Assembly (NCBI GenBank): GCA_035528415.1
Contig: DATKYQ010000044.1
Location: 4,473 to 68,472, forward strand
Source of the DNA: Myxococcota bacterium
Lineage (GTDB): Bacteria > Myxococcota > B64-G9
Direction of reading: 5' to 3'
Length of the DNA: 64,000 bases
Part shown: positions 11,974 through 56,251 of the stretch, piece after piece
Layout: every line of letters begins with the position of its first letter
Numbering within the stretch: position 1 is the first letter of the stretch
Position numbers and translations under genes: made by a program
Notes under the pieces: generated by a model
Seen by the model: the letters and a program-made list of their open reading frames with translations, nothing else
Told to the model about the DNA's origin: nothing
Database searches by the model: none

Positions 11974-11986
11974 TAGGAGAACCATC

Positions 11987-13300: not shown

Positions 13301-13357
13301 TACGGTAACGCGACGCTGTAATTGACTCACGCCGGATATGACAATAGTATTATTCTT

Positions 13358-41159: not shown

Positions 41160-43170
41160 TCTTTGCCAGCGCCGCCTGAAAATCCTTGATGGTCGCCGGC
41201 TTGGCTATGAAGTCATCCATTCCCGCCGCCAGGCAGCGCTCGCGGTCTTCTTCGAGCGAGTGGGCGGTCATGGCAATCATGTACACGTGGCGATCGCCGC
41301 CGGCTTCATGGCGGCGAATCTCTTTCGTGGCATCGAAGCCGTCGACGCCGGGCATCTGGCAATCCATGAAAATCGCGTCGTAATCTCCGCGCGCGGCCAT
41401 CTCGACCGCCTGCCGACCGTCGGCGGCCAGCTCGATCTCGCAGCCCAGCCTCCCGAGAATGGTCAGAGACACTTCCTGGCTGACGTCGTTGTCTTCCGCC
41501 ACCAGCACTTTCAACCCAGTTGGTACGCTTTTTTCGGTTCGCTCTTCCGGAACGGGCTCGTCTTCACACGGGGACTCGACTACAGAAAGATCCAGAACGA
41601 AGAAGAACTCCGAACCCTGCTCCGGCCGGCTTTTCACCGATAACTCACCGCCCATCATCAGGACGAGCTGCTTGCTGATGGCCAGGCCCAGTCCGCAACC
41701 CGCGTAGCGGCGCGAGGCCGATGAATCGACCTGGGTGAACTTGTCGAAGATGCCGTCGAGCTTCTCGCCGGGAATCCCGATTCCTGTGTCATGAACCGAG
41801 AAACGCAACCGGGCCATGTCTCCTTTTCGTCCCTCGCTCTCGACTGCCAGCCTGACCCGCCCGCGCTCGGTGAACTTCAGGGCATTGTCTACCAGGTTGA
41901 CCAGTACCCGTCTGATGCGTCCGGCGTCGCCGACGAGCCGGTGAGGCGCCAGGGGAGCATAGCGCATGGACAGATCGAGACCTTTCTCAATCGCCAAGGG
42001 CGATAGCATCTCGACAACGTCGGCCGTCAGCGCCCGCATATCCAGCGGGGCCGGATCGAGCGTCAGACGTCCCGCCTCGATCCTCGAGAAATCCAGAAGA
42101 TCGTTGATGACGTTCAAGAGCACCTCGGCCGAGCGCGTGATCGTCTCAACATAGCGCCTCTGCTTGTCATCGAGACCACCGTCATCGAGCAGCGAGGCGA
42201 CTCCGATGATGCCGGCCAAGGGAGTGCGAAGTTCGTGACCCATGTTGGCCAGGAACTCGCTCTTGGCCCGGTTGGCCGCCTCGGCATCTTCCTTGGCTGC
42301 CTGGAGAGCACTCAGGACCTTGCGGCGTTCGGTTACGTCGCGCGCGATCACCAGCACCGCCGGCCGGCCGCCGTGCTTGATGGCCGTATCGGAGATCTCG
42401 AGATCGCGCATCTGGCCGTTGCGATCTCTAAATCTCACCTCGGCCTTGTCCTGCCTGCGCTCACCCGAGAGAAGCGCGCTTACGCGGGCCAGGCTTCCTT
42501 GCTTCTCGTCTTCTCCAAGGTAATCTATGTAGTCGCTCTCGATCACCTCGGCCGGCCGCCTGCCCCCCATTTTCGCGAGGGCCCGGTTCAGGAAGATCAC
42601 CTTGCCGTCCTGCAGGATGGCCACCCCGTCGCTGGCCGCCTCGACCAGCGCCAGGTAAAGGGCCTCGGATTCCTCGCTGCGCACCAGCAGATCTCTCTGC
42701 GCCCGAACCTTTTGCGTGCGCAGGCGATGGATCTCGAAGACACGGTCCAGCAAGCGCAGGAGAGTACGGCTCTCGATCGGCTTGCGCAGGTAGTGAAAGG
42801 CGCCCTTCTCCATGGCCGCCACGGCCGAGTCGAGATCGGCATGCGCGGTCATGACGATGCATAAGCAATCTGGATGGCGCCCCTTGAACTCCGATAGAAA
42901 ATCGGTGCCCAGCCCGTCCGGCAGACGCAAGTCGATAAGCGCCACCTGGAATTCGCGCTTGGCTGCAATAGCTCGCGCCTCTGCACAGTTTCCGACGAAG
43001 GTTACCCGGCAGCCTTCCTTTTCCAGAATGTCAGCGAGCAACCCGCAAAGAGCCGCATCGTCGTCCACCACCAGGATGGTTCTTTCGTTCGAGTCCGCCA
43101 AACTCCCTCCAAAAAGCATCCTATCCACAAAACAGGACCCATTGATATGACACCCGCACACAGGAATCAA
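41137..43170 (-). CDS. Hybrid sensor histidine kinase: REC - PAS - HisKA - HATPase_c - REC
   Basis: N-terminal receiver (ILVVDDDAAL ... ALIDLRLPDGLG ... FHYLRKP); PAS-like middle; H-box ANMGHELRTPL; N, G1 and G2 boxes (DTGIGIP, GCGLGLAIS); C-terminal receiver (LVAEDNDVSQ ... IFMDCQMPGVDG ... IAKP); true start may be the internal ATG around 43122. Confidence 0.8.
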   Translation of the reverse strand: MIPVCGCHINGSCFVDRMLFGGSLADSNERTILVVDDDAALCGLLADILEKEGCRVTFVGNCAEARAIAAKREFQVALIDLRLPDGLGTDFLSEFKGRHPDCLCIVMTAHADLDSAVAAMEKGAFHYLRKPIESRTLLRLLDRVFEIHRLRTQKVRAQRDLLVRSEESEALYLALVEAASDGVAILQDGKVIFLNRALAKMGGRRPAEVIESDYIDYLGEDEKQGSLARVSALLSGERRQDKAEVRFRDRNGQMRDLEISDTAIKHGGRPAVLVIARDVTERRKVLSALQAAKEDAEAANRAKSEFLANMGHELRTPLAGIIGVASLLDDGGLDDKQRRYVETITRSAEVLLNVINDLLDFSRIEAGRLTLDPAPLDMRALTADVVEMLSPLAIEKGLDLSMRYAPLAPHRLVGDAGRIRRVLVNLVDNALKFTERGRVRLAVESEGRKGDMARLRFSVHDTGIGIPGEKLDGIFDKFTQVDSSASRRYAGCGLGLAISKQLVLMMGGELSVKSRPEQGSEFFFVLDLSVVESPCEDEPVPEERTEKSVPTGLKVLVAEDNDVSQEVSLTILGRLGCEIELAADGRQAVEMAARGDYDAIFMDCQMPGVDGFDATKEIRRHEAGGDRHVYMIAMTAHSLEEDRERCLAAGMDDFIAKPATIKDFQAALAKITGRRSS

Positions 43171-43221
43171 GCAACAGGTTTACCGATTGCCGCTTGCATG
43201 CCTGTCTGCTACGCTTCAACA

Positions 43222-44295
43222 ATGATTGCTGTTATCGATAGGCGGCCGAGATGGAAGCGCCTGATGGCTATAGTTCTCGGCGCTGTGGTCACACTGGCTC
43301 TTGTTTTCGCGGGAGTGCTGATGTTGATCGAATGGAAGCCCGGGCCAGTCGAGGACACGCCGGTATCCGGAGGCGGCGACCGGGCACTGAAGCCGCCTGT
43401 GTCGCTGGATCTATTGTCTTTCAACATAGGCTACGGAGGGCTTGGCCGGCAGGCCGACTTCTTCATGGACGGCGGCGAACAGGTGCGCCCTGAGCGGGAT
43501 GCCGTCGAGGCCAACCTCGCGGCCTTCGGGGATGTCTTGCGCTCTCATCCGGCCGACATCGTCTTGCTCCAGGAGGTCGACCGCGACTCCTCTCGAAGCT
43601 ACGGCATCGACCAGGCCGCGGCCCTGGCCGGCGTGCTGCCGGGCTTTGCCCGCTCGATGGCGCTCAACTTCAAGGTGCCCTGGATTCCCTACCCCGTGTT
43701 GCGCCCGCTGGGCAGGGTTGAAAGCGGCCTGCTCTCTTTGAGTCGCTACCCGTTAGGCTCGGCCAAGCGCTTACAACTTCCCGGCTACTACCCCTGGCCG
43801 GTGCGCGTCTTTCATCTCAAGCGCTGTCTGCACCTGTTACGCTTCCCGGCCCCGGACGGCAAGGACTGGGTGATAATCAACCTGCACCTGTCGGCTTTCG
43901 ACAAGGGCGGCCGCCTGCGGCAGGAGCAGATGGTCTACCTGAAGAAACTGGTTATGGATCTGACAGGCGCCGGGCATCACCTGATCGCCGGGGGCGATTG
44001 GAACCAGGCCTTTCCCGGGATCGACGGCGGCACTTTTGCGCACGGCGATCCCGTTCCAGGCTGGTTCCAGCAGATGGATCCAGCCTGGCTCCCAGCCGGC
44101 TTCCGGTGGGCCTACGACCGCATGCAACCCTCGCTGCGCGCCATCAACAAACCCTACACACCAGGCGAGAACTTCCTGACAATAGTAGACGGCTTCTTAG
44201 TCGGCCCCGGAATAGAAGTGCTCGAAGTACACACGACCAACCTCGGCTTTGCCAACAGCGACCACAACCCGGTGCTGCTGCGGGTGAGGCTCTAA
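43222..44295 (+). CDS. Endonuclease/exonuclease/phosphatase (EEP) family protein, N-terminally membrane-anchored
   Basis: TM MAIVLGAVVTLALVFAGVLMLI; EEP landmarks LLQEVD, NLHLSAFD, GDWN, SDHNPVLL. Confidence 0.7.
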   Translation: MIAVIDRRPRWKRLMAIVLGAVVTLALVFAGVLMLIEWKPGPVEDTPVSGGGDRALKPPVSLDLLSFNIGYGGLGRQADFFMDGGEQVRPERDAVEANLAAFGDVLRSHPADIVLLQEVDRDSSRSYGIDQAAALAGVLPGFARSMALNFKVPWIPYPVLRPLGRVESGLLSLSRYPLGSAKRLQLPGYYPWPVRVFHLKRCLHLLRFPAPDGKDWVIINLHLSAFDKGGRLRQEQMVYLKKLVMDLTGAGHHLIAGGDWNQAFPGIDGGTFAHGDPVPGWFQQMDPAWLPAGFRWAYDRMQPSLRAINKPYTPGENFLTIVDGFLVGPGIEVLEVHTTNLGFANSDHNPVLLRVRL

Positions 44296-45317
44296 TTTCC
44301 CGGCTCGATGATTACTTTTATAGACTCGTCGCCTTGTGCGACCAGGCGGAAGCCTTCCTGGATTTGAGACAGCGGCAGGCGGTGGGTGACCATCTCGGCG
44401 ACGGAAACCGTCCGGCCGGCTATCAGATCCAGGGCTTCCGCGCAGTCGGCGGGCGAGCCGGCGTAGGACGGGACAAGGGTTATCCCGTTTCGCCAGAAGT
44501 CGTTCACCGGAACGGGAAGATCCTGGCCCGGGGGCGGGGTGGCGAAGAAGAGAACGGTTCCTCCCCGGTCGACCGAAAGGATGGCCTGATTGAGGACAGG
44601 GATGGTCCCGGCGCAGACTATTACCACGTCGGCACCGCGGCCCTGGTTGATCTTGCGGATTTCCGCCGGCACGTCGTCGTCCCCGTGCAGAACCGCCGTG
44701 GCACCGAACTTCTCGGCCTGTTTCATGCGGTAGGTGTTGATGTCTGTTGCTATCACCTGCGAAACGCCTAGTGCACGCGCGAGCGCAATGTGCAAGATAC
44801 CCGAGATGCCGCTTCCCAGCACTGCAACCGTCTTGCCGGGCTTGACCCCGGCGATGCGCTGGCCGCGAAGCACGCAGGCCAGCGGCTCAATAAAAGTACC
44901 CTCCTCGAAGCTCATGCTGTCCGGCAGAATAAAAAGGCCGCGATCGACATTGATGGCCGGTACGCGGACGAACTCGGAAAAACCTCCGGGATCGAAGTTG
45001 GTGGTATGCAGTGTCTCGCAGACGGTGTGCTGCCCGCTCAAGCAGTAGCGACAGGTGTTGCAGGGCACATGGTGGCTGACAAATACGCGCTCTCTGACCT
45101 TGTAGCGTGAAACTCCCGGGCCGACTTTCTCTATTGTGCCCGCGATCTCATGGCCCAGCACAAGCGGCGCTTTCTTGATGCGGTACCACTCCATGACATC
45201 GCTTCCGCAGATGCCGCTGGCGGCAACCCGCACCAGGATTTCGCCCGGCCCGATTTCGGGAACGGGCCGTTCCTCGACGCGGCTGTCTGTGTTGTTGTGG
45301 TAGACGGCGACCTTCAT
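44292..45317 (-). CDS. Zn-dependent medium-chain alcohol dehydrogenase (sorbitol/threonine dehydrogenase-like)
   Basis: GICGSDV ... GHEIAGTIEKVG catalytic Zn site; structural Zn Cys cluster CNTCRYCLSGQHTVC; Rossmann VAVLGSGISG. Confidence 0.8.
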   Translation of the reverse strand: MKVAVYHNNTDSRVEERPVPEIGPGEILVRVAASGICGSDVMEWYRIKKAPLVLGHEIAGTIEKVGPGVSRYKVRERVFVSHHVPCNTCRYCLSGQHTVCETLHTTNFDPGGFSEFVRVPAINVDRGLFILPDSMSFEEGTFIEPLACVLRGQRIAGVKPGKTVAVLGSGISGILHIALARALGVSQVIATDINTYRMKQAEKFGATAVLHGDDDVPAEIRKINQGRGADVVIVCAGTIPVLNQAILSVDRGGTVLFFATPPPGQDLPVPVNDFWRNGITLVPSYAGSPADCAEALDLIAGRTVSVAEMVTHRLPLSQIQEGFRLVAQGDESIKVIIEPGN

Positions 45318-45322
45318 GAGCG

Positions 45323-46111
45323 CTACTTTTCAGACGCCTTCAGATCCTGGTACATCTCGTAGGCCTGTCCGGCCGGCAGGTTCTTGTGAACAACGGCGCG
45401 CACCGCCTTGATCATGGCCACCGGGGAATCTGACTGGAAGACGTTGCGGCCCATGTCCACCCCGGCGGCGCCGTCGCCCACGGCGTTGGCGGCCATTTCT
45501 AAAGCATCCTTCTCGGGCATCTTCTTGCCGCCGGCGATCACCACCGGAACCGGAGTGGCGGCAATGATTTTCGAAAAATTCTCGCAGTAGTATGTTTTCA
45601 CCATGTGGCTGCCGATCTCGACGGCCATCCGGCAACACAGCCCCAGATAGCGGGCATCCCGGGCCATCTCGCGGCCCACCGCGGTCACGGTCATGACGGG
45701 GATGCCGTACTTGTTGCCCCAGTCGGCGAGCTTGCCCAGGTTGATAAGCGTCTGGTGCTCGCCCGGTGTGCCGACGAAGATGGACAGGGTGATGCCGCAG
45801 ACATTGAGCCTGATTGCATCTTCAATGTCGCAGGTGAGGCCTTCGTTGGAAAGTTCTGTGAGAATGCTGTTGCCCCCCGAGACGCGCAACATGATCGGCA
45901 CGTCGCTGTCGGGGTCGACACAGATGCGCAGCATTCCCCTTGTGATCATCAGGGTGTCGGCGTACGGCAGTAAGGGGTCGATCGTGCTCTTGAGATCCCT
46001 AAGGCCGGTGGTGGGTCCCTGAAAGTAGCCGTGGTCCACGGCCAGCATGACGATCCGTCCGGTATCGGGTTTGATCATCCGCGCCATTCTGTTCTTCATT
46101 CCCCATTCCAT
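45323..46111 (-). CDS. Class I DhnA/LsrF-type aldolase (fructose-bisphosphate aldolase family)
   Basis: 262 aa; blocks IVMLAVDHGY, ITRGM, MLRVSGG, HMVKTYY resemble archaeal-type class I FBP aldolase / LsrF. Confidence 0.7.
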   Translation of the reverse strand: MEWGMKNRMARMIKPDTGRIVMLAVDHGYFQGPTTGLRDLKSTIDPLLPYADTLMITRGMLRICVDPDSDVPIMLRVSGGNSILTELSNEGLTCDIEDAIRLNVCGITLSIFVGTPGEHQTLINLGKLADWGNKYGIPVMTVTAVGREMARDARYLGLCCRMAVEIGSHMVKTYYCENFSKIIAATPVPVVIAGGKKMPEKDALEMAANAVGDGAAGVDMGRNVFQSDSPVAMIKAVRAVVHKNLPAGQAYEMYQDLKASEK

Positions 46112-46206
46112 GTTCTTCCTCCTTCATGGTTCGAGAGTGCAATCTTATGCAACGCAGTATGGAAGTCAAGCTGCTCAGCGAACGACGATCCGCCTCTCGT
46201 TGACAC

Positions 46207-46218
46207 CCCGATATCGGG
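46207..46218. promoter_or_regulatory. 12-bp perfect palindrome CCCGATATCGGG in the 190-bp gap upstream of the aldolase/ADH genes
   Basis: Perfect inverted repeat inside the only sizeable intergenic gap of the BMC region; candidate operator; function not demonstrable from sequence. Confidence 0.2.
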
Positions 46219-46302
46219 ACTTAGATTGTTCTACAGGAAAGACGGGAGGTCGCCATGGCTGGCATAAAAAACCATTCTGGCCTGCCCGAATTGCATCGCC
46301 CG

Positions 46303-47748
46303 TCAGTTCCCCTTCTGGCCGGCAGACTGGCCGGTGGCGATGGCCACCGAGGCCGAGGCGCCGATACGCGTGGCGCCGGCCGCCACCATGGCCTCGGCCG
46401 TCTGACGATCCTTGATGCCTCCCGAGGCCTTGACGCCCATCTCGGGCCCGACCGTCTCGCGCATCAGGGCAATGTCCTCGACTGTGGCCCCGCCCCCGCC
46501 GAAGCCGGTCGAGGTCTTTACGAAATTCGCCCCGGCCATCTTGGCCAGCAGGCAGGCCTTGACGATCTCCTCCTTGGCGAGCAGGGCGGTCTCGAGGATC
46601 ACCTTGACCAGCGCCTGGCCGCGGGAGGCGTTGACGACTCCCTCGATGTCCCGGCGCACCAGTTCGTCGTCACCCGATTTCAGGGCCCCGACGTTGATGA
46701 CCATGTCGATCTCTCTGGCCCCGTTGGCGATGGCGTCGCGTGTCTCCATGGCCTTGGACGTCGGTGTCGTCGCGCCCAGCGGAAAGCCGATCACTGTGCA
46801 AACCTTGACGTCGCTGCCGGCCAGCAACCGGGCGCACAAGGCCACCCGACCGGGATTGACGCACACCGAGGCGAAGTGGAACTGCCTGGCCTCGGCGCAC
46901 AATTTATGAAACTGATCTTCGGTGGCGTCCGGCTTGAGCAGGGTGTGATCGATCATGCGGCTGATGTCGCCTGAGACAGGCTGCGCCCCAATCGAGGATC
47001 CAACACGCGCGGCGCCGCCTTCTACCAGCTTGCTGACCGCCTCTGGGTTGTTCTCGATGCACAGCCCGCAAGAGCTGCACTCGCCGATGGTCGCCAGCGT
47101 GCAAGCCGGGTTGGGCTTTTGCTCGCCCGTAACGGGATCGACGATTGTTCCCGGGCCGGTCATTTTATCGACGTCGCACAGGCACACGCCCAGCGCCGCA
47201 AGCTGTTTCTCGATGTCGGCGATCTTTTGCCTGACGGCGGCCGGCGCCGCGGCCGGCTCGATCTCGGCGGCAAACAGCGAGTCACGCGCGGCCACCACCG
47301 TGATTCCGCGCATCAGTCCATAGATTGCCAAGATGCAAACCAGGCTGTCGGGCAGCATGGTCAGCAGCTTCGAAGCTGCGTTGAGCGACATGTTCGGCAG
47401 GTAGATTACACCGACGCCGTCGAGCAACTTCCAGACGTCGCCCTCGGTGAGAACCTCGGCTTCGGGGGCGGCCCGGCGTACGGCCGGCACGCCGACAATC
47501 TTCTGCGCCGAGGAAGAGAGAACCACCTTGCAGTCCTCGCAGCAGTCGCAGATCTTGCCTACTTGCGAAAGCGCCTCTGTGAGCCTGCGGTTGCCGCCGG
47601 TGAGCAGGACCAGCACGCGTTTGCCCTTGGGCGTCGCGGGCGGTATCCAGCCGCTGTCCATTCTCTTCTCGCCTTCCGTGGACGGGGACGGCCCCAGCCG
47701 TTTGATCACTTCCGCGGATATCCTGCGAACCAGATCGTCGGAATCCAT
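46303..47748 (-). CDS. deoC: Fusion protein: N-terminal Cys-rich domain of unknown function with putative encapsulation peptide + C-terminal deoxyribose-phosphate aldolase
   Basis: C-terminal half has DERA landmarks ([28 protein letters not shown] with Schiff-base Lys, VKASGGI); N-terminal 250 aa start with the amphipathic [15 protein letters not shown] and contain CDCCEDC and CSSCGLC. Confidence 0.8.
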
Positions 47749-47889
47749 AGGTGTCCTCCACTACGGGCGGACCCGGGGCGTTCCCGGGCCCGGGCTCCGC
47801 ATGGGACGAAGTTATCCCAGGCTCGGCCGTAACCCTCACACTGCGAGGGCCGCTGAGAAACGCGGAAACCACGGCACGAGCGGCGCCGA
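47749..47889. promoter_or_regulatory. GC-rich palindromic intergenic segment between the BMC-H stop and the deoC-fusion start
   Basis: Nested GC palindromes (cccggg, cgggcccg) able to form a stable RNA stem-loop on the minus-strand transcript; no trailing U-tract, so not a canonical intrinsic terminator. Confidence 0.25.
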
Positions 47890-48177
47890 TTACTTGCCGG
47901 CGGTCTTGGGCAGGATGCCTTCCACGTCGCCGTGCGGACGCGGGATGACATGCACCGACACCAACTCGCCGACCTTCTTGGCCGCCACCGCGCCGGCTTC
48001 CACCGCGGCCTTGACCGCGCCGACGTCGCCGCGCACCATGACGGTCACGAACCCGCCGCCGATGAACTCCTTGCCTACCAGGGACACCTTAGCTGCCTTG
48101 ACCATTGCGTCGGCCGCCTCGATTGCGCCCACCAAGCCTTTGGTCTCGATCATTCCCAGCGCTTCTTTCGACTCCAC
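47890..48177 (-). CDS. BMC shell hexamer protein (BMC-H, PduA/EutM/CcmK family)
   Basis: 95 aa; GTG start; canonical Pfam00936 sequence [26 protein letters not shown] ... VHVIPRPH. Confidence 0.95.
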
Positions 48178-48199
48178 GTCAAACCTCCGTCTGTTGAAC

Positions 48200-48502
48200 T
48201 TAGGGATTCCAGATCTTCACACGGCCGCCGGGTTCTTCCTCGACGGCCAACTCATCCACGTATCCAACTATGGTCGCATCCACCGGGGGCTTGTCGCCTA
48301 AAGCGATGGCCGCGTCCCTCTTCATGACCAGGTAAACCACATCGCCGGGCCCGGCGCAACGAATCCCGTCGACTGCGACGAACGCTTCGCCCGAGGGCCG
48401 CAGGTTTTGGTCGAGCCCCTGAACGACCAGAAGCCTGAGACCCTCGAGTTCGGGGTCCTTGATCGTCGCCACTACGCGCCCGATGACTTTTCCCAAGCGC
48501 AT
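48200..48502 (-). CDS. BMC vertex pentamer protein (BMC-P, EutN/PduN/CcmL family), copy 1
   Basis: 100 aa from ATG 48502: [28 protein letters not shown] ... [10 protein letters not shown]; the track ORF start at 48712 overlaps rpiB and is rejected. Confidence 0.9.
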
Positions 48503-48509
48503 ACCTTGC

Positions 48510-48977
48510 CTACCCTTCCCGAACGCGATTCTCGACCGCGGTGATCTTGTCGAGCCTTTGCTGGTGCCGTCCACCGGCATAGTCGGTCTCAAGCCAGAGC
48601 TTGGCCAGATCCTTGGCCAGGCCCGGGCCGAGAACTTGTCCGCCCAGGCAGAGCACGTTGGCGTCGTTGTGCACCCGGCTGCTCTTGACACCGAAGGCAT
48701 CGTATCCGGCAATCGCCCTGATACCCGGCAGCTTGTTGGCCACGATGGCGCTGGCCTGCCCTATGCCGTCAATCATGATGCCCCGGCAATCCGCGGAAAC
48801 CCGCGAAGCTCCGGCCACGGCCTGCGCCACCAAAAAGGCGAAATCGGGATAATCGCAAGCATCCTTCCCGTGACAGCCGAAGTCGCGCACCTCGTGCCCA
48901 AGTTCCACCAGAAATGTCTTCAGCGACTCTTTCAGTTGGTAGCCACCGTGGTCGCTGCCGATAAAAATCTTCATCAC
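48510..48977 (-). CDS. rpiB: Ribose-5-phosphate isomerase B (RpiB/LacAB family)
   Basis: MMKIFIGSDHGGYQLKESL ... GIMIDGIGQASAIVANK ... NDANVLCLGG landmarks; 155 aa. Confidence 0.9.
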   Translation of the reverse strand: MMKIFIGSDHGGYQLKESLKTFLVELGHEVRDFGCHGKDACDYPDFAFLVAQAVAGASRVSADCRGIMIDGIGQASAIVANKLPGIRAIAGYDAFGVKSSRVHNDANVLCLGGQVLGPGLAKDLAKLWLETDYAGGRHQQRLDKITAVENRVREG

Positions 48978-49843
48978 GCCTTCTCCCGGGCCGTAATGGC
49001 GATGATTTCACTCAACGCTTCGGGATTCAAGCCCGCTCCTCCCACCAGGAAACCGTCGCAGTCCGGCATTCGCGCAAGATCCCCGGCGCTGCCGACACCG
49101 ACGCTGCCCCCGTAGAGCAGGCGCGACCGTTCGGCCCAGGCATGTGAAAACAACTCGCCCAACCTGTCGCGGATGAAAACCAGGGCCTCCTGGACCTGGG
49201 AGGGCGAGGCGACCAGTCCGCTGCCGATGGCCCAGATCGGCTCGTAGGCCACTACGATCTCCTGCGGATCGGGTGCCGGCTGCCCCAGCCCGGAAAGCGC
49301 CAGCGTGAGCTGGGCGCGCAGCACGCGGAAGGTCGCGCCCCGCTCGCGCTCTTCAAGCCGCTCGCCGACGCACAGAACAGGAGTCAGGCCTGCGGACAGC
49401 GCGGCGAGCAGCTTGCGGCGCACCAGTTCGTCGTCCTCGCCGGCCGCCCGGCGCTCGGAATGTCCCACGATCACGTAGCTCGCGCCGGCATCCTTTATCA
49501 TCTCGGCGCTGTGCTCCCCTGTATGCGCGCCGGAGTGTTCCGGGTGCAGATCCTGGGCGCCCAGGCTGACATGCGTGCCGTTGGAGAGCGCGCCGCGCAA
49601 CACCGGCAGCAGCACCAGCGGCGGGCACAACAGCGTGTCCACTCCGCTGTCCGCGTGAGGATTCAGTTTGGCCGCGTAGCGCCGCGCGTCCTCGGCCAGC
49701 AAGTTCATTTTCCAGTTGGCGGCGATCAGCGGCCGGCGACCGCCGCTGGCGGATAACCGATGTATATCTGCATCGCCCGCGGCCATGGTCTCGTAGACCA
49801 CCTGGCGCACCACCCGTTCCACTCTGTCCCGCAGGTCGCTCAC
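48974..49843 (-). CDS. tpiA: Triosephosphate isomerase with N-terminal extension of about 30 aa (candidate encapsulation peptide)
   Basis: IAANWKMN, VIVGHSERR, AYEPIWAIGSG, GGSV TIM landmarks; GTG at 49843 (GGGGAGGG RBS 9 nt upstream; overlaps the upstream BMC-P stop as GTGA) gives MSDLRDRVERVVRQVVYETMAAGDADIHRLSASGGRRPL before the IAANWKMN core; alternative start is the internal ATG around 49786. Confidence 0.8.
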   Translation of the reverse strand: MSDLRDRVERVVRQVVYETMAAGDADIHRLSASGGRRPLIAANWKMNLLAEDARRYAAKLNPHADSGVDTLLCPPLVLLPVLRGALSNGTHVSLGAQDLHPEHSGAHTGEHSAEMIKDAGASYVIVGHSERRAAGEDDELVRRKLLAALSAGLTPVLCVGERLEERERGATFRVLRAQLTLALSGLGQPAPDPQEIVVAYEPIWAIGSGLVASPSQVQEALVFIRDRLGELFSHAWAERSRLLYGGSVGVGSAGDLARMPDCDGFLVGGAGLNPEALSEIIAITAREKA

Positions 49844-50157
49844 TTGTGTGCACCCTCCCCGGCCGGCGCCTCGAGCGCCAGGCGTTCGCCGCGCACCCGG
49901 ACCTGATCGATCACCCCAACGATGATCGCTTCGCAAGGCGCGCTATCGCTGCCGAGCACCTGCCGGGCGCTCTTGCCTTCCTCGACCACCAGGACGTAGT
50001 CACCAACGCCCGCCTGGGCGGCGTCGATGGCGATAAAAGCAGGATCGGTCTGCCGCCCCTTGCTGTCGATCGGGCCGACGAACATCAGCTTACAGCCGAC
50101 ATGATCCGGATGCTTGACTGTCGCAACCAGCGACCCGATGACCCTCGCGATTTTCAA
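49840..50157 (-). CDS. BMC vertex pentamer protein (BMC-P), copy 2
   Basis: 105 aa: MKIARVIGSLVATVKHPDHVGCKLMFVG ... AIIVGVIDQV. Confidence 0.9.
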   Translation of the reverse strand: MKIARVIGSLVATVKHPDHVGCKLMFVGPIDSKGRQTDPAFIAIDAAQAGVGDYVLVVEEGKSARQVLGSDSAPCEAIIVGVIDQVRVRGERLALEAPAGEGAHK

Positions 50158-50186
50158 GTCAATCTCCTTATCCGTCCATCAGGCGA

Positions 50187-50750
50187 TCACAACAACTTCG
50201 CAACCAGGTCGGGATGCGGGGCCGGGATCACGGTCGTAGCCAACAGCAAGCCGTGATCGCGGGCCGCACGCTGTCCGGCCTCGACGGCCGCCCTGACGGC
50301 GGATACCTCGCCGGTCAGCAGCACATAGCCCTTGCCTCCCAGTGCCCGGGCCAGACGGATCTCGAGCAAGTCGACCCGGGCGCTCTTGACCGCCTGGTCG
50401 CCGGCGATGATCGCCGCAGCCAGCGAAAAAGTCTCGATCACTCCCAGGGCGGCGATGCCGGCCGGCACGGTCGTAGCGCTGAAGGCATCGAGTACCTGCG
50501 GATGAACGTTGGGAATGACGATCTCGTCCACTAAGCTGTCTCTGGCCTCGGTCTTCCCGGCCGCGACCGCGGCCTGCGTATCGGCCACCGCTCCACCGAT
50601 GATTGTCAGGTACTTGCCCGGGCAGACCGGGCTGGAAAACAGCAGACGCACCCGGGCGGCCTTGAGCATGGCATCAGCCGCCCGGATTCCCGTGACCACG
50701 CTGCTGGTCTCGACACAACCAATCGCCTGCTCATTTTTTTTCTCGACCAC
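50187..50750 (-). CDS. BMC tandem-domain shell protein (BMC-T, PduT-like)
   Basis: 187 aa with two BMC domains (AIGCVETSSVVTGIRAADAMLKAARV and ALGVIETFSLAAAIIAGDQAVKSARV). Confidence 0.85.
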   Translation of the reverse strand: MVEKKNEQAIGCVETSSVVTGIRAADAMLKAARVRLLFSSPVCPGKYLTIIGGAVADTQAAVAAGKTEARDSLVDEIVIPNVHPQVLDAFSATTVPAGIAALGVIETFSLAAAIIAGDQAVKSARVDLLEIRLARALGGKGYVLLTGEVSAVRAAVEAGQRAARDHGLLLATTVIPAPHPDLVAKLL

Positions 50751-50753
50751 GGT

Positions 50754-52106
50754 TTACTCCACGTCGATGGTGACGGCCGTCGGACTGACTTCGGCCACCC
50801 GTCCGGCAAGGCCGGTGTGTACGCATGCGCCCAGAGCGTCCCCGGGGACCTCTCCCAACAGCTCTCCGGCCGCTACATTCTGGCCGGCTTCTACCACGGC
50901 CTGTGCCGGCTGGCCGGCATGTTGCTTCAACGGTATGGTCAGGCGCGTCAGCTCGATTTCAAATGCAGCCCGGGGCGCCGGGCGATCGTAGGCGTCTAGG
51001 CCCAGGCGGGCAATCAGGCGTTTGGAAGGCACCCTGCGTAACGGACTGAATTCGCGTTCCGCCGATGTCACCGCCGGCTGCGGGCGAGGCATCCCGGCTT
51101 CCGTAAGTCGCCCTACAAACTCTTTGTTCATGGCGCACGGGTCGAGATTCATCACACAACCATAGGCCGTACATAACCCGCAGCCTGAGCAGAGAAAGGC
51201 CCCCGTGTAAGCCTGCAGATCCTCGCTCACGCTCGCGGCCAGGTTACGCATCAGTCGGTCGGGATAGAGCCGGTGGCCAAGCAAGTTGCGCGGGCAAATT
51301 TCGGTGCACAGCATGCACTTCAGACAAGCCGAGCGCGCCAGGTGAATTTGGCGCTCGACTGTCCGCCGTCGACGTGTGACCTGCGGGTGATCCGCGGGAA
51401 GCACGAGCATAAGGCTTGTGGTCTTGGTTACTACTGAGGAACTCTCGTCCACGATCGAACCCATCATCGGCCCGCCGGAAATGACTACTGCCGATTCGCA
51501 GGCTGCTCCCCCGGCCGCTTCCAGCAGAGCCGACAAGGGAGTTCCAAGCGGCACGCGGAAGGTGGCCGGGCTCCCGACCGCGCCCGCCAGGCTGACGTAG
51601 CGGTGCGTGACAGGCTGCCGGCCGTCGACGGCCGCGGCCACATCGATCAGGGTAGAGACATTCGACACCACGGCGCCCACCGCGAGCGGCAGGCCGAACT
51701 CGGGAATTACACGATCGAGCACCTCGCGTACCAGCACAAACTCGTCCCCGGCCGGGTAAAAGTCATCCAGCAGGCGCAACTCAATCTTCTCGCCAATATT
51801 GCCGAGTTTGATTGCCTCGCCGAGCGCATCGATCGCTGGGGCGTATTTTTTCTTGAGCGCCACGATCCCGCGCCGGGCACCGGTGATCTCCATGGCGATC
51901 TGCAGCCCGCGCAGCACCTCGCGGGGCTTCGAGGCCATGCGCTGCTGGTCGACCCGCGCCAGCGGCTCACACTCGGCCCCGTTACCGATGACTACCTCCA
52001 CCTGCGCTGCATACTTGACATGGGTGGGGAAACCCCCGCCTCCGGCGCCGACCACGCCGGCCGTGCGAATTCTTTCGAGCCACTCTTTTACAGAACCATG
52101 GACCAA
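50754..52106 (-). CDS. PduS-like RnfC/NuoF-family Fe-S flavoprotein (BMC-associated oxidoreductase)
   Basis: GAGGGGFPTHVK nucleotide-binding N-terminus; SLBB-like region; two 4Fe-4S motifs CLKCMLCTEICP and CSGCGLCTAYGC; 450 aa. Confidence 0.8.
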   Translation of the reverse strand: MVHGSVKEWLERIRTAGVVGAGGGGFPTHVKYAAQVEVVIGNGAECEPLARVDQQRMASKPREVLRGLQIAMEITGARRGIVALKKKYAPAIDALGEAIKLGNIGEKIELRLLDDFYPAGDEFVLVREVLDRVIPEFGLPLAVGAVVSNVSTLIDVAAAVDGRQPVTHRYVSLAGAVGSPATFRVPLGTPLSALLEAAGGAACESAVVISGGPMMGSIVDESSSVVTKTTSLMLVLPADHPQVTRRRRTVERQIHLARSACLKCMLCTEICPRNLLGHRLYPDRLMRNLAASVSEDLQAYTGAFLCSGCGLCTAYGCVMNLDPCAMNKEFVGRLTEAGMPRPQPAVTSAEREFSPLRRVPSKRLIARLGLDAYDRPAPRAAFEIELTRLTIPLKQHAGQPAQAVVEAGQNVAAGELLGEVPGDALGACVHTGLAGRVAEVSPTAVTIDVE

Positions 52107-52117
52107 GCCAGCTCCTC

Positions 52118-53587
52118 TCAGACGATCCTGAAGGCCCCGGCCAGCACGCAGCGGCGCTGCCTGGTGAACGTGCGCGCCGAGGTCAGGCCCTCGCCGGTGG
52201 GGCCGGCGATGCTCAGCGTGGTAAAACCCTCGCCGCCGAATCCCAGCCCGGCGTAGGAGGGAGCGTTCTTGACGAAGATGGTGGTCTCGATCTCGCGGGC
52301 CACCAGGCTCATGTTGCTGACGCTCTCCGAGTGCATCATTGCCGAGTGCCGGTTGCCATGCTCGGCCTGCTTGGCCTTGGCAAGCGCAGTGGTGAGATCG
52401 GGCACTGCAACGATCGGCAGGATAGGCATCAGCATCTCGGCCTGCACCAGGGGATGCTCGAAGGGCACCCGGCAGATCACCAGGCGCGTATCGGGACCGG
52501 CCGTGAGGCCGATCTGATCCAGCAAGACCGAGGCGTCTTTGCCGACGAACTTCTTGTTGGGGTGCGGGTGAGGCCGGCCGGGCTCGACCAGCACCGAGGT
52601 GATCTTATCGACATCGTCGCCCGAGATCAGACGCGCTCCATAGGTAATCATCTCATCGATCAACCTGTCGGCGACGTTTTCTAAAACCAGCACCTCTTTC
52701 TCGGCCGTGCACAGGACGTTGTTGTCGAACGATGCCCCGTCGACGATACAGCGGGCGGCCTTGCGGATATCGGCGGTGTCGTCGACGATAACCGGCGGGT
52801 TTCCCGGTCCGGCCGCGACCGCCTTCTTGCCGCAGGTCATGGCCAGCCTGACCACCTCGCCCCCACCGGTGACCATCAATAACCGGATGCCGGGATGCAT
52901 CATGATCGCCTGCGATGTCTCCAGGCTGGGCTGGGCGATAGAACACAGCAGCGTCTCGGGACCGCCGGCAGCATGGATGGCCTTGTTCAGAAGACTCACG
53001 GCCTCGTTGCTCACCCCCTTGGCCAGCGGGTGAGGATTGAAGACCACCGCGTTGCCGGCCGCCACCATCGAGATGCCGTTGTTGATCACGGTGGCCACCG
53101 GGTTTGTGCAAGGGGTAACGGCGGCGACGACACCGTAGGGCGCCGGCTCAACAAGCGTCAAGCCGTCGTCGCCCGTGTAACACATCGGCGTCAGGTCTTC
53201 CACTCCCGGTGTCTTGCGGGCCGCCAGCAGGTTCTTCTGCACCTTGTGCTCGGCGCGCCCGAAACCCGTCTCGGCCACAGTCTTGCGCGCCAGGTCCTCG
53301 GCCATCTCGATGCCCGCCTGCCGCATAGCCTTGATGAACACCCGGCGGCGTTCGAGAGACACGCCCGAGAATGCCTGGTAGGCGGCCCCGGCGGCGGCGA
53401 TGGCCTCTTCCATCGTCTCGAAGACGCCATTCGCAGTTGACCCGCCATTTTGCGCGCCGGCCCGCGGCTCGCAAATAAGTGACCGCGGACGTGGTTCTGC
53501 AACAGGCTGCGAATCGCCGTTCGTCACTCGCCTGACGATCTCGGTCACCAGCCGCTCGATCTCTTTTTCGTTCACCGGAATGGTCAT
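52118..53587 (-). CDS. CoA-acylating aldehyde dehydrogenase (PduP/EutE family) with N-terminal encapsulation peptide
   Basis: N-terminal amphipathic EKEIERLVTEIVRRV; ALDH superfamily body with catalytic Cys region NNVLCTAEKE; 489 aa. Confidence 0.9.
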   Translation of the reverse strand: MTIPVNEKEIERLVTEIVRRVTNGDSQPVAEPRPRSLICEPRAGAQNGGSTANGVFETMEEAIAAAGAAYQAFSGVSLERRRVFIKAMRQAGIEMAEDLARKTVAETGFGRAEHKVQKNLLAARKTPGVEDLTPMCYTGDDGLTLVEPAPYGVVAAVTPCTNPVATVINNGISMVAAGNAVVFNPHPLAKGVSNEAVSLLNKAIHAAGGPETLLCSIAQPSLETSQAIMMHPGIRLLMVTGGGEVVRLAMTCGKKAVAAGPGNPPVIVDDTADIRKAARCIVDGASFDNNVLCTAEKEVLVLENVADRLIDEMITYGARLISGDDVDKITSVLVEPGRPHPHPNKKFVGKDASVLLDQIGLTAGPDTRLVICRVPFEHPLVQAEMLMPILPIVAVPDLTTALAKAKQAEHGNRHSAMMHSESVSNMSLVAREIETTIFVKNAPSYAGLGFGGEGFTTLSIAGPTGEGLTSARTFTRQRRCVLAGAFRIV

Positions 53588-53600
53588 GAACTCAACCTCG

Positions 53601-53891
53601 TTACTTGGCGAAAGTCTGCCGCCCGCCGATGTCGATAAAATCTACTATGGCCACAATGGTCGCGTCGACCGGCGAATCATGGGTGGTGTCGGTCAGCCTC
53701 GACGATGAGCCCTGAACCACCAGCACTATCTCGTCCTCGCCGGCCCCGACTGAATCCACGGCTACCAGTTGTTTGCCGCTGGCTTCCTGTTTCTCGAAAT
53801 CGACCGGATCGACGACCAGCAGCTTGGTTCCGGAAAGCTTCTCGGATTTCCGTGTGCTGACTACGTTTCCTACAACTCGCGCAAGAAACAT
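53601..53891 (-). CDS. BMC vertex pentamer protein (BMC-P), copy 3
   Basis: 96 aa: MFLARVVGNVVSTRKSEKLSGTKLLVVD ... ATIVAIVDFI. Confidence 0.9.
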   Translation of the reverse strand: MFLARVVGNVVSTRKSEKLSGTKLLVVDPVDFEKQEASGKQLVAVDSVGAGEDEIVLVVQGSSSRLTDTTHDSPVDATIVAIVDFIDIGGRQTFAK

Positions 53892-53935
53892 GTTTCGTGC
53901 TCCTTTCGGTCAATATGTCGACCCGCAGTCGTTCA

Positions 53936-54703
53936 TCACACATCCAGCTTGACGATCTCAATGCCGAGATCGCGCGCCCGGCTTTCCGCCATAGGCGTCA
54001 CGATGGTGCCCGCGGGCAGCGTAAGTTGGCGTTCACCCGCCCGCGCCAGTTGTTCTACGTCGTCCTCCGTCACAAGCCCGTCGAAAGAGCGGGCCCGCGT
54101 GGTACCGGACGTCCCGATGTGTTCGATCAGCCCCGCTATATCGGCCGCGGCTACAGGCTGCAACCCCAGCGTGTCCAGGTCACGCAAAATGCTTGCGGCC
54201 TCGGCCCCCGTCTGACCCCGTGCGCCCAACCCGGACGGTCGCAGATCGTCCGTGACCAGGGCCACGCGCCGCCCGGCCAGAAGAGCCTGACTGACCAGCC
54301 TGACGAAGGGCTGCCCATCGCGCCTGTCAATCAGCGCCCGGGCGTGCTCGAAGCCGATACTGCCCACCAGCACCAGGTCATCGCGGCCGATCTCGCCAAG
54401 CGCATAGCTTAAGTCCGCCTCCGAAAAAGCGGAGATATCGCCGCCCAACTTCCCGCGCAAGCCCCCGCTATCGATGTCGCCGAGCAGGGCTGACTCACAG
54501 AGTACCCTCACGCGCGCGCCGCCTGCGACCAGGGGTGCCAGTTGGTCTGCCAGGATCCCGAGGTTTGCCGAGGCCACTGGCAACACCACGAGGATTCGCG
54601 GTGCGTGGCCCGCTGGGGGCAAACTCGCGGGGGACCCCAAGCGCGCCAGAACACGTCCGGTGATTTCCTCAATCAGGCGCTCGATTTCCTTGTCGTCTGC
54701 CAT
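53936..54703 (-). CDS. BMC-associated protein of unknown function with N-terminal encapsulation peptide
   Basis: N-terminus MADDKEIERLIEEITGRVLARL nearly repeats the aldehyde dehydrogenase EP (KEIERL); 255 aa; C-terminal TEDDVEQLARAGERQLTLPAGTIVTPMAESRARDLGIEIV block; no confident family assignment. Confidence 0.6.
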   Translation of the reverse strand: MADDKEIERLIEEITGRVLARLGSPASLPPAGHAPRILVVLPVASANLGILADQLAPLVAGGARVRVLCESALLGDIDSGGLRGKLGGDISAFSEADLSYALGEIGRDDLVLVGSIGFEHARALIDRRDGQPFVRLVSQALLAGRRVALVTDDLRPSGLGARGQTGAEAASILRDLDTLGLQPVAAADIAGLIEHIGTSGTTRARSFDGLVTEDDVEQLARAGERQLTLPAGTIVTPMAESRARDLGIEIVKLDV

Positions 54704-54720
54704 GCGTACAATTGTCCCGT

Positions 54721-55413
54721 TTACCGAATCGTCACACCGCCGGCCGTGTAATCACAGAAGGGACGCGTGTTGCCACCCTCGGTGCTCTGGGAGGCAAGGC
54801 ATCCCTCGCGGCCGCACAGGTCAAGGCACAGGCTTGGGACAACCTCGACCCGGCTGCCTGCTACGACTCCCGCCGCGTTGCCCTCATCGGTGTCCAGGTG
54901 CAACTCGGTCAGAAATTTGTCGCTCACCCGCACGACGATTTCATCGAAGATCAGCGAGCGCGGCCCCGGAAAGTGAACATACACCTTCTGGCCGTTTGTT
55001 ACTCCGAGCCTGCGGGCGTCCTGCGGTGTCGCGTGGATGTGGCGCACGGCGCAGATGCAGCCCGAGTTCAGCCGAACCGCCCCGCGGGGTCCAATCAGAT
55101 CGGCGCCCGGTGTGCCCGCCAGGTCGCCGGACAGGCGCACGGGCACGTTTATACCCAAGGCAACCCCGTCGCTTACCGACAACTCCACCTGGCTCGCGCC
55201 GCGGGGAGGGCCGAGAATTCGCACCCCGGGAATCGAGCGCCGCGGTCCGACGACCTCCAGCGTCTCGCGCGCGGCATACTGGCCCGGCTGGGACAAGGCG
55301 GACACAGGGGTCAGGCGGTAGCCGTGCCCGAAAAGCTCTTCCACATGCCGATCAGACAGGTGAACGTGCCGGGCCGAGAGGGCGACCGGGATGGTGCGAT
55401 CTCCGTTTTCCAT
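54721..55413 (-). CDS. pduL: Phosphotransacylase PduL (phosphate propanoyl/acetyltransferase)
   Basis: Two PduL-type repeats with metal-binding His motifs: SARHVHLSDRHVEELFG and ICAVRHIHATPQDARRLGV; 230 aa. Confidence 0.85.
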   Translation of the reverse strand: MENGDRTIPVALSARHVHLSDRHVEELFGHGYRLTPVSALSQPGQYAARETLEVVGPRRSIPGVRILGPPRGASQVELSVSDGVALGINVPVRLSGDLAGTPGADLIGPRGAVRLNSGCICAVRHIHATPQDARRLGVTNGQKVYVHFPGPRSLIFDEIVVRVSDKFLTELHLDTDEGNAAGVVAGSRVEVVPSLCLDLCGREGCLASQSTEGGNTRPFCDYTAGGVTIR

Positions 55414-55457: not shown

Positions 55458-56033
55458 TTACTTCGCCTTCAGGGAGTTCATGGCCTTGCCGACGGTGGCC
55501 GCCTCGCCCGGGCACTTCTGCGAAAAATCCATCATGACCTTCTGCATCTCGATCATGGTGGGCGCCATTAAAGCCACCAATTGCTGACCCATCTTGGCCG
55601 CATCGGGTCCCTTCATGTTCTTGCTCATCTCCTTCATTTTCTTAGAACACATCTCGATTTCGGCCTTGTTCTTCTCGACGTAGGCCGTGGCGGCAGCGGC
55701 CGCTTTCTTGCAATCCGGCATGCCGCCCTTGACGGCCTGCGTCACCTGGTTGATGTGCGCGACCATCTTCTTCATGTGCTCGGGCGCGGTCGAGGTGTCG
55801 ACGTTCTTGGCCATCTCGGCCGCGGCCGCGACGGCTTTGGCTGCGTCATCCTTGGCTGCCTCGGCGGCGCCCTCGACTGCCTCGGCTGCGCCCTCGACTG
55901 CCTCGGCGGCGCCCTCGGCTGCCTTGACGGCACCCTCGGCGGGCGCGTTCTCGTCGGTCTTCTTGTTGCAGCCAAGCGCCATGAGACTCGCGATTGCCAA
56001 CATGGTAACGAAAATCTTCAGAATCCGGTTCAT
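55458..56033 (-). CDS. Lys/Ala/Glu-rich lipoprotein with AEAVEGA tandem repeats
   Basis: ATG at 56033 gives MNRILKIFVTMLAIASLMALGC (lipobox); repeats AEGAVKAAEGAAEAVEGAAEAVEGAAEAAKD encoded by 21-nt DNA tandem repeats; visibly lower GC and Lys-rich compared with neighbours. Confidence 0.55.
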   Translation of the reverse strand: MNRILKIFVTMLAIASLMALGCNKKTDENAPAEGAVKAAEGAAEAVEGAAEAVEGAAEAAKDDAAKAVAAAAEMAKNVDTSTAPEHMKKMVAHINQVTQAVKGGMPDCKKAAAAATAYVEKNKAEIEMCSKKMKEMSKNMKGPDAAKMGQQLVALMAPTMIEMQKVMMDFSQKCPGEAATVGKAMNSLKAK

Positions 56034-56251
56034 GTCTTCCTCCTCCGAGGTTTTTGTACCCCGTCCATACGGGACACCAAGAACTTCATCCCGTATAACC
56101 GGGCAATCTATATCCACGACAAGTCGCCACAGTATCCCTCCCCGGAACGAATTTCAAGTATGTTCTTTCCGTCATCGAGAAACTGCGGACTTGAACGAAA
56201 CCGCCTTTCCCCCTAGTGTTATATGGAACAGAAAAAAGGGGAGACGATCTC

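Follow-up and report, generated by a model that had tools for sequence, protein, structure and literature searches.

We analyzed a 64,000-nucleotide stretch of DNA from a member of the Myxococcota (hereafter, the window), focusing upon a minus-strand gene of a bacterial microcompartment (BMC) locus in which a deoxyribose-phosphate aldolase (DERA, or DeoC) is fused to a long N-terminal region. The gene lies in a minus-strand cluster whose order of transcription runs from PduL through a 255-aa protein, BMC-P, AldDH, PduS, BMC-T, BMC-P, TPI, RpiB, BMC-P, and BMC-H to the fusion gene. Pfam annotation of the interval 44292..55413 accounts for one BMC-H, one BMC-T, and three BMC-P genes together with AldDH, PduS (Complex1_51K, RnfC, and Fer4 domains), PduL, TPI, and RpiB, and an acetate kinase is encoded near the locus. 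The RpiB (48510..48977, minus strand) has an Asp at the position of the catalytic Cys (IMIDGIG), where the E. coli enzyme reads ILICGTG. An Asp in place of this Cys has been reported in all RPIs of sugar-phosphate-utilization (SPU) microcompartments (PMC11585597). As Axen 2014, Sutter 2021, and Dwyer 2024 use the term, this is an SPU microcompartment locus, and two further loci, L083 (that of the fusion homologue P0004) and L088 (that of a close relative), are syntenic with the window. The features of the fusion gene and of one related gene are listed in Table 1.

Table 1. Positions in the window of the fusion gene, its parts, and a paralogue in the same cluster
Feature	Position	Strand	Basis
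Whole gene, fusion of encapsulation peptide (EP), flavoprotein-fold (Flav) domain, four-Cys motif, and DERA; 481 aa, ATG start	46303..47748	-	ORF list and sequence; 5 contigs; 14 homologues
Ribosome-binding site GGAGG, 6 nt 5' of the ATG	47755..47759	-	read from the sequence
EP-like N-terminal helix, residues 3-18	47695..47742	-	AlphaFold2 model, conservation, dN/dS, shared motif
Disordered linker, residues 19-43	47620..47694	-	AlphaFold2 model, identity, dN/dS
HFCD/PF02441-type flavoprotein-fold domain (predicted), residues 44-195 (VLVLLTGG, 45-52; motif, 118-127)	47164..47619	-	AlphaFold2 model, Foldseek, profiles
CDCCEDC, residues 67-73, inside the Flav-fold domain	47530..47550	-	lineage-specific
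Variable low-confidence linker, residues 196-215	47104..47163	-	length varies widely in homologues; pLDDT <50
Four-Cys motif C216-x7-C224-x2-C227-G-x-C230, putative metal knuckle	47059..47103	-	conservation
Linker helix and strand, residues 231-261, within the extension common to SPU DERAs	46966..47058	-	conservation, AlphaFold2 model
DERA/DeoC TIM barrel, residues 262-481 and stop codon	46303..46965	-	TIGR00126, conserved catalytic residues
Paralogue, 255 aa: EP-like helix, degenerate Flav-fold domain, PduM-like tail	53936..54703	-	hhalign, TIGR02536 tail match

The initial annotation of this stretch had proposed that the aldolase is not a standalone enzyme, and this proposal holds, as it is fused to an N-terminal region of ~260 residues within one open reading frame (ORF), and 14 full-length homologues, which are 41-62% identical to the window protein, have the same layout. 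The frame stays open from the ATG at 47748 through Met265, the alternative start, with no intervening stop codon. As read from the sequence, the upstream ATG is preceded by a GGAGG, whereas Met265 is preceded only by a weak AGG, which favors the long start. The identical 481-aa protein is called by other gene callers on 5 contigs from independent samples, the same architecture is also present in two GTDB genomes, and the GC content is flat over the whole gene. The ORFs antisense to the gene yielded no family matches and a reading of them as genes was rejected. We also compared the window gene at the codon level with its >90%-identical relative from locus L088. The leader helix had a ratio of nonsynonymous to synonymous substitution rates (dN/dS) of 0.0, the linker one of 0.91, the folded N-domain one of 0.10, the Cys/helix segment one of 0.088, and DeoC one of 0.078, while the 264 codons upstream of Met265 had an overall value of 0.14. 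These low and domain-specific values indicate that the upstream codons are translated and constrained. The deposited protein from the same locus of a Myxococcota metagenome-assembled genome (GenBank HUU01869.1) is a 217-aa product corresponding exactly to residues 265-481, thus leaving out the EP, the Flav domain, and the Cys motif. This NCBI annotation would agree with an artifact, in which the true product is a 217-aa DeoC starting at Met265 and the upstream 264 codons either are not translated or come from a second gene that a frameshift has joined to it. However, automated annotation systematically truncates the extensions of BMC enzymes, as Dwyer et al. have warned (PMC11585597), and the artifact would be at odds with the open frame and GGAGG of the upstream ATG, the constraint upon the upstream codons, the recurrence of the architecture in diverged homologues, and a predicted local distance difference test (pLDDT) score of >90 for residues 44-195. 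We consider it scarcely credible. A sequencing frameshift separating two genes, which the initial annotation had named as a potential refutation, was looked for and not found; the continuous ORF, the constrained upstream codons, and the conserved architecture rule out an artifact of this type. The gene start given here corrects that of HUU01869.1, and since this entry begins at Met265, surveys of deposited proteins will under-count the fusion architecture.

All of the motifs quoted in the initial annotation were located within the 481 residues: the leader at residues 4-18, VLVLLTGG at 45-52, CDCCEDC at 67-73, and CSSCGLC at 224-230, the last of these together with an additional Cys at position 216. 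In a monomer model from AlphaFold2, built upon a 102-sequence alignment, residues 3-18 form a helix that leads into a disordered stretch, residues 44-195 form a very confident alpha/beta domain, and residues 200-260, ahead of the TIM barrel, are modeled with low confidence. The barrel matches TIGR00126, the DeoC equivalog, over residues 262-470 with 279.9 bits against a cut-off of 117.3, and it also matches Pfam PF01791 (E 3.4e-15). In an alignment of 15 homologues, D348 (IDMVIN), K382, and K440 (GVKASGG) are invariant and K411 (FVKTSTGF) is nearly so. We take D348, K411, and K440 to be equivalent to E. coli D102, K167, and K201, which comprise the Schiff-base Lys along with the proton-relay Asp and Lys. 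Judged from these residues, the C-terminal part of the protein is an intact, active-looking DERA, a class I aldolase. The C-terminal Tyr of E. coli DERA (Y259) contributes to catalysis, and it is absent from the window protein, which ends in ...QKGN (46303..46308 being its last codons), while the >90%-identical relatives and 11 of 14 homologues end in Y (...GY). The missing residue is an accessory feature rather than one that defines DERA.

At the opposite end of the protein, the AlphaFold2 helix at residues 3-18 has block-mean pLDDT values of 77-89, a mean pairwise identity of 45% among the fusions, and a dN/dS of 0 against a dS of 0.51. Its motif, L(V/I)xxI(T/S)xEV(L/I), is common to SPU DERAs, including the non-fused ones, and to a standalone Flav-like family described below. 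The linker that follows (residues 19-43) has a pLDDT of <50 at residues 20-32, a mean identity of 13.5%, and the near-neutral dN/dS given above. A short terminal helix joined to a poorly conserved flexible linker is characteristic of an EP, and residues 3-43 take this form. The suggestion of an EP-like leader in the initial annotation is therefore borne out by the predicted helix, the disordered near-neutral linker, and the motif shared with BMC DERAs and the standalone family. In the literature, the N-terminal extension of SPU DERA is described as a putative EP (PMC11585597), and an archaeal Flav+DERA fusion has been found to be recruited to shells in an EP-dependent manner, using GFP fusions and EP deletion (PMC12747264).

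The identity of the domain between the leader and the aldolase was only apparent from its predicted structure and from profile comparisons. Residues 1-261 have no Pfam or NCBIfam family match, and a single-sequence phmmer search of PDB sequences returned only chance matches. A word-indexed search yielded just 3 relatives, whereas an exhaustive HMMER search was needed to find the 103 that are considered here, ~14 of which are DeoC fusions of 446-504 aa and most of the others standalone proteins of 250-285 aa. The AlphaFold2 model of residues 44-195 has block-mean pLDDT values of 91-98, and a Foldseek search of this model against the PDB returned FMN-binding HFCD/UbiX/AfpA proteins for all of the top 50 matches (E 1e-7 to 1e-5). 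These matches include TvaF, UbiX, PPC decarboxylase, MrsD, EpiD, and DmrB, with target-normalized TM-scores of mostly 0.5-0.72 and identities of 9-17%. The family profile similarly matches the PDB sequences of DpaB (6.5e-8), TvaF (6.8e-7), and EpiD (3.2e-6), as well as those of human PPC decarboxylase, CoaBC, AtHAL3a, AfpA, and UbiX, and one fusion homologue (P0007) has a weak precomputed PF02441 match. In the predicted structure, residues 44-195 thus have the HFCD/UbiX/AfpA "Flavoprotein" (PF02441) fold. The Foldseek and profile matches place VLVLLTGG at strand 1 and the Gly loop of this fold, so the Rossmann-like stretch of the initial annotation is of the flavin-binding type. That annotation had also cautioned that homology to a known non-BMC protein of conserved function would count against its proposal. 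The fold is indeed that of the HFCD flavoproteins, but the closest relatives are BMC-specific proteins, and the objection applies in form only. For its suggestion that the N-domain delivers substrate to DeoC, there was nothing in favor.

The same fold- and profile-level likeness could indicate that the N-domain is itself an HFCD-type enzyme, such as a cysteine decarboxylase of the CoaC-like type, a UbiX-like prenyltransferase, or a DpaB-like subunit, acting in a two-step pathway with DERA. We consider this very improbable, because identity to such enzymes is only 9-17%, the profile alignments end short of their C-terminal substrate-binding part, and the family consensus reads GKPVxAAxDxxD where HFCD decarboxylases have the motif PxMNxxMW. 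In addition, the nearest relatives are BMC-specific and EP-bearing, the domain evolves fast across homologues, and no pathway logic joins reactions of this kind to deoxyribose phosphate.

Regarding the flavin site, the corresponding residues of the window protein are T50-G51-G52 and P118-x-x-S121-x-N123-A124. The 82 standalone relatives retain F-T-G-G-(T/S)-I-G and P-V-L-T-x-N-T-A-A-K-x-A-x-G-I-x-D, with the Asn present in 71/82, the Lys in 76/82, the Asp in 80/82, and the third Gly in 57/82. The 14 fusions are more relaxed, as both the Asn and the second Gly occur in 7/14, the third Gly in none (0/14), and an Asp follows the GG pair in 6/14. Across the homologues, identity averages 25% in the Flav domain, compared with 45% in the leader helix and 66% in DeoC. 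In our reading, the fold has been retained to serve a structural or binding role, and cofactor binding is possible without being assured.

All ten of the standalone relatives tested exceed the PF02441 gathering score (25-48 bits vs 22.7), and standalone members additionally give sub-threshold matches to TIGR02536 (eut_hyp), CoaBC, DpaB, and AfpA. Their last ~45 residues form a tail resembling PduM and the N-terminal part of EutQ (...T..D...IVTPLA.D.A...GI.I), again with sub-threshold matches, and one member is flanked by an EutJ-like gene and a BMC-P gene. PduM is a structural microcompartment protein. The fusion lacks this tail and has no NCBIfam match within residues 1-261. A member of the same family is present in the window cluster itself, as the 255-aa protein encoded between PduL and BMC-P matches the family profile over its full length (hhalign probability 99.1%, E 1e-18) even though it has no Pfam match, and BLASTP of the N-domain against it was not significant; only the profile comparison revealed the kinship. 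Its flavin-site motifs are degenerate, while its length, EP, and tail are retained, and L083 and L088 have orthologues in the corresponding place. The "DUF" named in the preprint on archaeal microcompartments is probably this protein. A recent duplication of this gene as the source of the fused domain was considered and rejected, the distance between them being about 0.9. In a neighbor-joining tree of the Flav domain, the fusions form no clean single clade: 12 of 17 fall in a group that also holds five fragments and P0055, a full-length standalone protein, while the remaining 5 are found elsewhere on long branches. The Flav domain of the fusion belongs to a BMC-specific branch of the flavoprotein fold, the standalone members of which (~260 aa) have the PduM-like tail. 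As a separate observation, SPU loci of Anaerolineae, Acidobacteria, and others encode, just 5' of DERA, a protein of ~236-280 aa (presumably the SPU RPI) that has, near its N-terminus, the same ~45-residue PduM/EutQ-N-like motif as the tail of the standalone Flav-like family. Examples, all on the plus strand, are L018 9190..9903, L032 and L038 9270..9977, L044 9149..9856, L014 6178..6945, and L026 743..1552. This ~45-residue module may be a shared docking element.

The two Cys clusters noted by the initial annotation, within what it saw as a possible metal- or iron-sulfur (Fe-S)-binding or nucleotide-binding module, differ sharply in their conservation. CDCCEDC is retained only in the >90%-identical relatives, where it reads CDCCQDC, and it is absent from P0001, P0003, P0004, and all other homologues. 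In the AlphaFold2 model, it runs from the end of helix 1 into the start of strand 2. It was therefore rejected as a conserved metal site. In contrast, 12 of 15 fusions have the four-Cys motif containing CSSCGLC (C-x7/8-C-x2-C-G-x-C), in each case ~43 residues ahead of the DeoC "IDHT", and the other 3 lack it. The AlphaFold2 confidence is low over this region, and no Fer4 Pfam match was obtained for the segment in the scan of the window protein. Downstream of the motif (residues 231-261), G245 and R248 are invariant among the fusions and A246 nearly so, with a predicted helix at 235-249, and this AGAxR(I/L) element recurs in non-fused SPU DERAs. The wider distribution of the motif was apparent from a scan of one genome per species, which identified 80 DeoC loci, with a domain-only profile used for the Flav search. 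Ordinary non-BMC DeoC proteins (Bacillus, Listeria, and others) have no N-terminal extension, whereas ~47 BMC-type DERAs have one of 55-130 residues, consisting of an EP-type helix (LVEIITREVL...), a Cys-rich segment, and the AGAxR(I/L) helix. Among these 47 extensions, at least three Cys are found in 29, two in 12 (several as CSPHHxxC), and none or one in 6, with spacings such as CxxxCxxxxCxxxC, CxCxxxCxxxCP, and CxxCGxC. CSSCGLC is accordingly not part of the N-domain as first described, since it lies within a linker and DERA extension shared by most SPU DERAs with or without a Flav domain. As the alignments present it, the Cys motif belongs to the common SPU-DERA extension, and in the window protein the Flav domain separates the EP helix from the Cys segment as an insertion. 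The variable spacing, the replacement of Cys by His, and the occasional loss suggest a structural metal site, and the four-Cys motif is probably a small structural knuckle binding Zn or Fe-S. The published description of the SPU-DERA extension consists of a helix and two low-confidence beta strands, with no mention of cysteines (PMC11585597). A different arrangement was observed in the Candidatus Ozemobacter sibiricus-type fusions (L001 9998..11485 and L002 9953..11509, both plus strand), which lack the TGG loop and have eight Cys in two clusters (CxxCx5CxxC and Cx4Cx6Cx3C) between the Flav domain and DERA.

From these results, we lean modestly towards a reading in which the protein is the signature aldolase of an SPU microcompartment with a composite N-terminal module, the Flav domain of which serves as a lumenal assembly or adaptor domain. 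As expected from its family membership, the DERA would cleave deoxyribose 5-phosphate, and the neighboring AldDH, PduL, and PduS/BMC-T would process acetaldehyde and NADH (and CoA). The N-terminal helix and flexible linker would be the EP that brings the enzyme into the shell lumen, as we infer here and as experiment has shown for the archaeal Flav+DERA homologue. If the Flav-fold domain were oligomeric, it could cross-link dimeric DERA into an enzyme core; this idea draws upon the oligomers of other HFCD proteins, as every solved HFCD/UbiX/AfpA protein known to us forms a trimer, or a larger assembly built from trimers, in which the flavin sits where subunits meet. The DERA of SPU6 is a dimer (PMC11585597). 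The Flav domain may still hold FMN, even if the fused copies as a group are relaxed at the flavin-site motifs, and the four-Cys motif would contribute its probable metal knuckle. An adaptor role fits with the relaxed flavin motifs of the fusions, the degenerate paralogue kept in the operon, and the PduM-like tail of the standalone relatives. The Flav domain also evolves much faster than DeoC across the homologues, and non-catalytic packaging proteins derived from enzymes are a recurrent BMC theme (PMC11585597). Several observations weigh against this reading. The hydrophobic moment of the leader, 0.48, is not significantly above that of shuffled sequences (0.33 +/- 0.16, with 18% of them reaching 0.48); by eye, the helix does show an i, i+3/4 hydrophobic pattern. 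The window protein has no PF02441 match even at E<=10, the Pfam gathering score not being reached, and the inter-domain arrangement in the AlphaFold2 model is undefined, with a predicted TM-score (pTM) of 0.52. The window copy keeps T50-G51-G52, S121, N123, K127, and D134, and these residues leave FMN binding possible. Similarly, the Flav-domain dN/dS of 0.10 between close relatives is a tight constraint that fits cofactor binding equally well. Lastly, the Hodarchaeales preprint proposes no role for the Flav domain (PMC12747264).

The retained flavin residues and the strong purifying selection upon the Flav domain would also fit the main rival reading, a redox-active N-terminal module carrying FMN in the Flav domain and an Fe-S cluster on the four Cys, and either passing electrons (e.g. 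from the NADH produced by AldDH) to the PduS/MNdh-BMC-T export system or sensing the lumenal redox state. The structural neighbors of the domain are all FMN proteins, including the electron-transfer flavoprotein DmrB/AfpA, and the sequence CxxCGxC followed by xxxxP resembles a ferredoxin half-motif. The locus itself encodes PduS and a BMC-T with the Fe-S motif CPGK, a combination that corresponds to the MNdh/BMC-T(SE) electron-export pair described in PMC11626177, and the operon of the close relative includes a NifU_N/IscU-like Fe-S scaffold gene two genes downstream. PF02441 proteins of MNdh operons have likewise been suggested as possible electron acceptors (PMC11626177). However, that suggested acceptor would sit outside of the shell, whereas this protein has an EP. 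The chemistry of DERA is non-redox, no NAD(P)H-binding element was found in the protein, and there is no Fer4 match. The Cys motif is also present in Anaerolineae-type SPU DERAs, none of which have a Flav domain, indicating that the motif is not tied to a flavin partner; these loci have been assigned to SPU6 (PMC8217296), and PduS occurs in all SPU subtypes except SPU6 (Dwyer et al., PMC11585597). Furthermore, the Cys spacing is highly variable, with Cys sometimes replaced by His or absent, as is more typical of a structural Zn site, 3 of 15 fusions have no Cys motif, and the flavin positions are relaxed in the fusions. We therefore judge electron transfer or redox sensing by the module to be unlikely. 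It is quite unlikely that an FMN/Fe-S lumenal module upon this non-redox aldolase feeds the PduS(MNdh)-BMC-T chain or switches the activity or packaging of DERA. If true, such a module would be a new means by which metabolosomes link the cleavage of a substrate to the recycling of cofactors, and the Hodarchaeales microcompartments would have inherited it.

Several additional features of the locus were observed among the neighboring genes, all of which are on the minus strand unless stated otherwise. The tandem-domain BMC-T (50187..50750), with its PduT-type CPGK Fe-S ligand motif, directly follows PduS (50754..52106). The ORF of TPI (48974..49936) has an N-terminal extension of ~60 residues with an EP-like helix (DLRDRVERVVRQVVYETM); gene callers predict a product of 289 aa, the start is ambiguous, and there is an overlap with the BMC-P gene upstream. 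Unlike the RPI of SPU6, the window RpiB has no N-terminal extension. Directly downstream of the fusion gene is an LsrF-type 3-hydroxy-5-phosphonooxypentane-2,4-dione thiolase (45323..46111; NF006081, 398.7 bits vs a cut-off of 297) followed by a Zn-dependent dehydrogenase (44292..45317), with a promoter-like conserved site, TTGACT-16-TAAGAT (46169..46142), ahead of the two genes. A thiolase yielding dihydroxyacetone phosphate and acetyl-CoA beside an SPU microcompartment is outside of the published SPU schemes. In L088, the interval between the fusion and LsrF-like genes (11462..13540) contains a class II aldolase, the NifU_N/IscU-like Fe-S scaffold gene, and a molybdopterin oxidoreductase-family gene, whereas the window has only a ~190-nt spacer there (46112..46302), so about 2 kb was either lost from the window or gained in L088. 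The product of the first gene of the cluster (55458..56117) is small, with a signal sequence of the lipoprotein type (...LMALGC) and repeats rich in Ala and Glu (AAEAVEGAAEAVEGAAEAA); L083 and L088 have ORFs of 198-204 aa with no Pfam match at this position. The window, L083, and L088 all retain an EEP-family nuclease/phosphatase gene close to the locus (43147..44295, plus strand, in the window), and another fusion-bearing contig has a 5'-nucleotidase between BMC-P genes (L087 447..2006). The EEP-family gene and the 5'-nucleotidase fit with nucleic-acid scavenging as a source of deoxyribose phosphate.

Overall, the finding is a solid but incremental addition to what is known of SPU microcompartments. 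It places a fusion that had been seen as distinctive of the Hodarchaeales, the closest archaeal relatives of eukaryotes, in the Myxococcota and in diverged lineages, bacterial or metagenomic, that number at least 14. The fused domain is also tied to a widespread uncharacterized BMC "flavoprotein" family with a PduM-like tail, and the four-Cys motif emerges as a general trait of the SPU-DERA extensions that had previously gone unremarked.

The features of the protein can be compared with those of four known systems. With the HFCD/UbiX/AfpA proteins (EpiD, MrsD, TvaF, CoaC/PPC decarboxylase, UbiX, DmrB, DpaB), the Flav domain shares the Rossmann-like fold, the Gly loop after strand 1, and the segment P-x-x-(S/T)-x-N-(T/A)-x-x-K-x-A-x-x-x-x-D, but no decarboxylase substrate-clamp motif was seen in it. 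With the standalone PF02441 family (~250-285 aa), it has in common the EP-like helix, the linker, and the Flav domain (phmmer E down to 1e-13), as well as a gene position beside shell-protein genes; the standalone members differ in ending with the PduM/EutQ-N-like tail rather than the Cys motif and DERA, and in keeping the flavin motifs much more strictly. The literature on standalone BMC flavoproteins only speculates on electron shuttling (PMC11626177). The SPU DERA with a ~70-residue extension (Dwyer, Sutter & Kerfeld 2024, PMC11585597) has the same core, EP helix motif, Cys-rich hairpin, and AGAxR helix, and it likewise has an RpiB with Asp as its neighbor, whereas the window protein adds a ~150-residue Flav domain and linkers between the EP helix and the Cys-rich segment. 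Neither the cysteines nor a Flav domain are mentioned for the DERA extension in that study (PMC11585597).

The nearest counterpart is found in the Hodarchaeales, where DERA is fused to a flavoprotein domain in most of the BMC operons, a fusion described as "uncommon in BMC" and "a distinct feature" (bioRxiv 10.1101/2025.11.08.687404; PMC12747264). In agreement with "uncommon", only two of the ~47 BMC-type DERA loci in our species-representative scan carry a Flav domain, namely those of Candidatus Ozemobacter sibiricus and an uncultured bacterium, both of which are satellite-like with two BMC-P genes each. The archaeal operon is listed as PTAC, DUF, AldDH, MNdh, T(s) with CPGK, three P, TPI, RPI, Flav+DERA, and acetate kinase, to which type II adds a class II aldolase (PMC12747264). 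As judged by this description, the window locus has the same fusion, EP, and operon content, and L083 and L088 also have the class II aldolase. The differences are that the window locus is bacterial and has no Lys/Arg-rich disordered tail on a BMC-P, and that the Cys motif and the link to the standalone PduM-tail family are absent from the preprint (PMC12747264). The same preprint, of November 2025, derives the Hodarchaeales BMC operons from uncultured Myxococcota (PMC12747264). The Flav-DERA fusion was thus probably inherited by the archaea rather than invented there, and the window is a bacterial case of this already described architecture from the proposed donor phylum, the Myxococcota.

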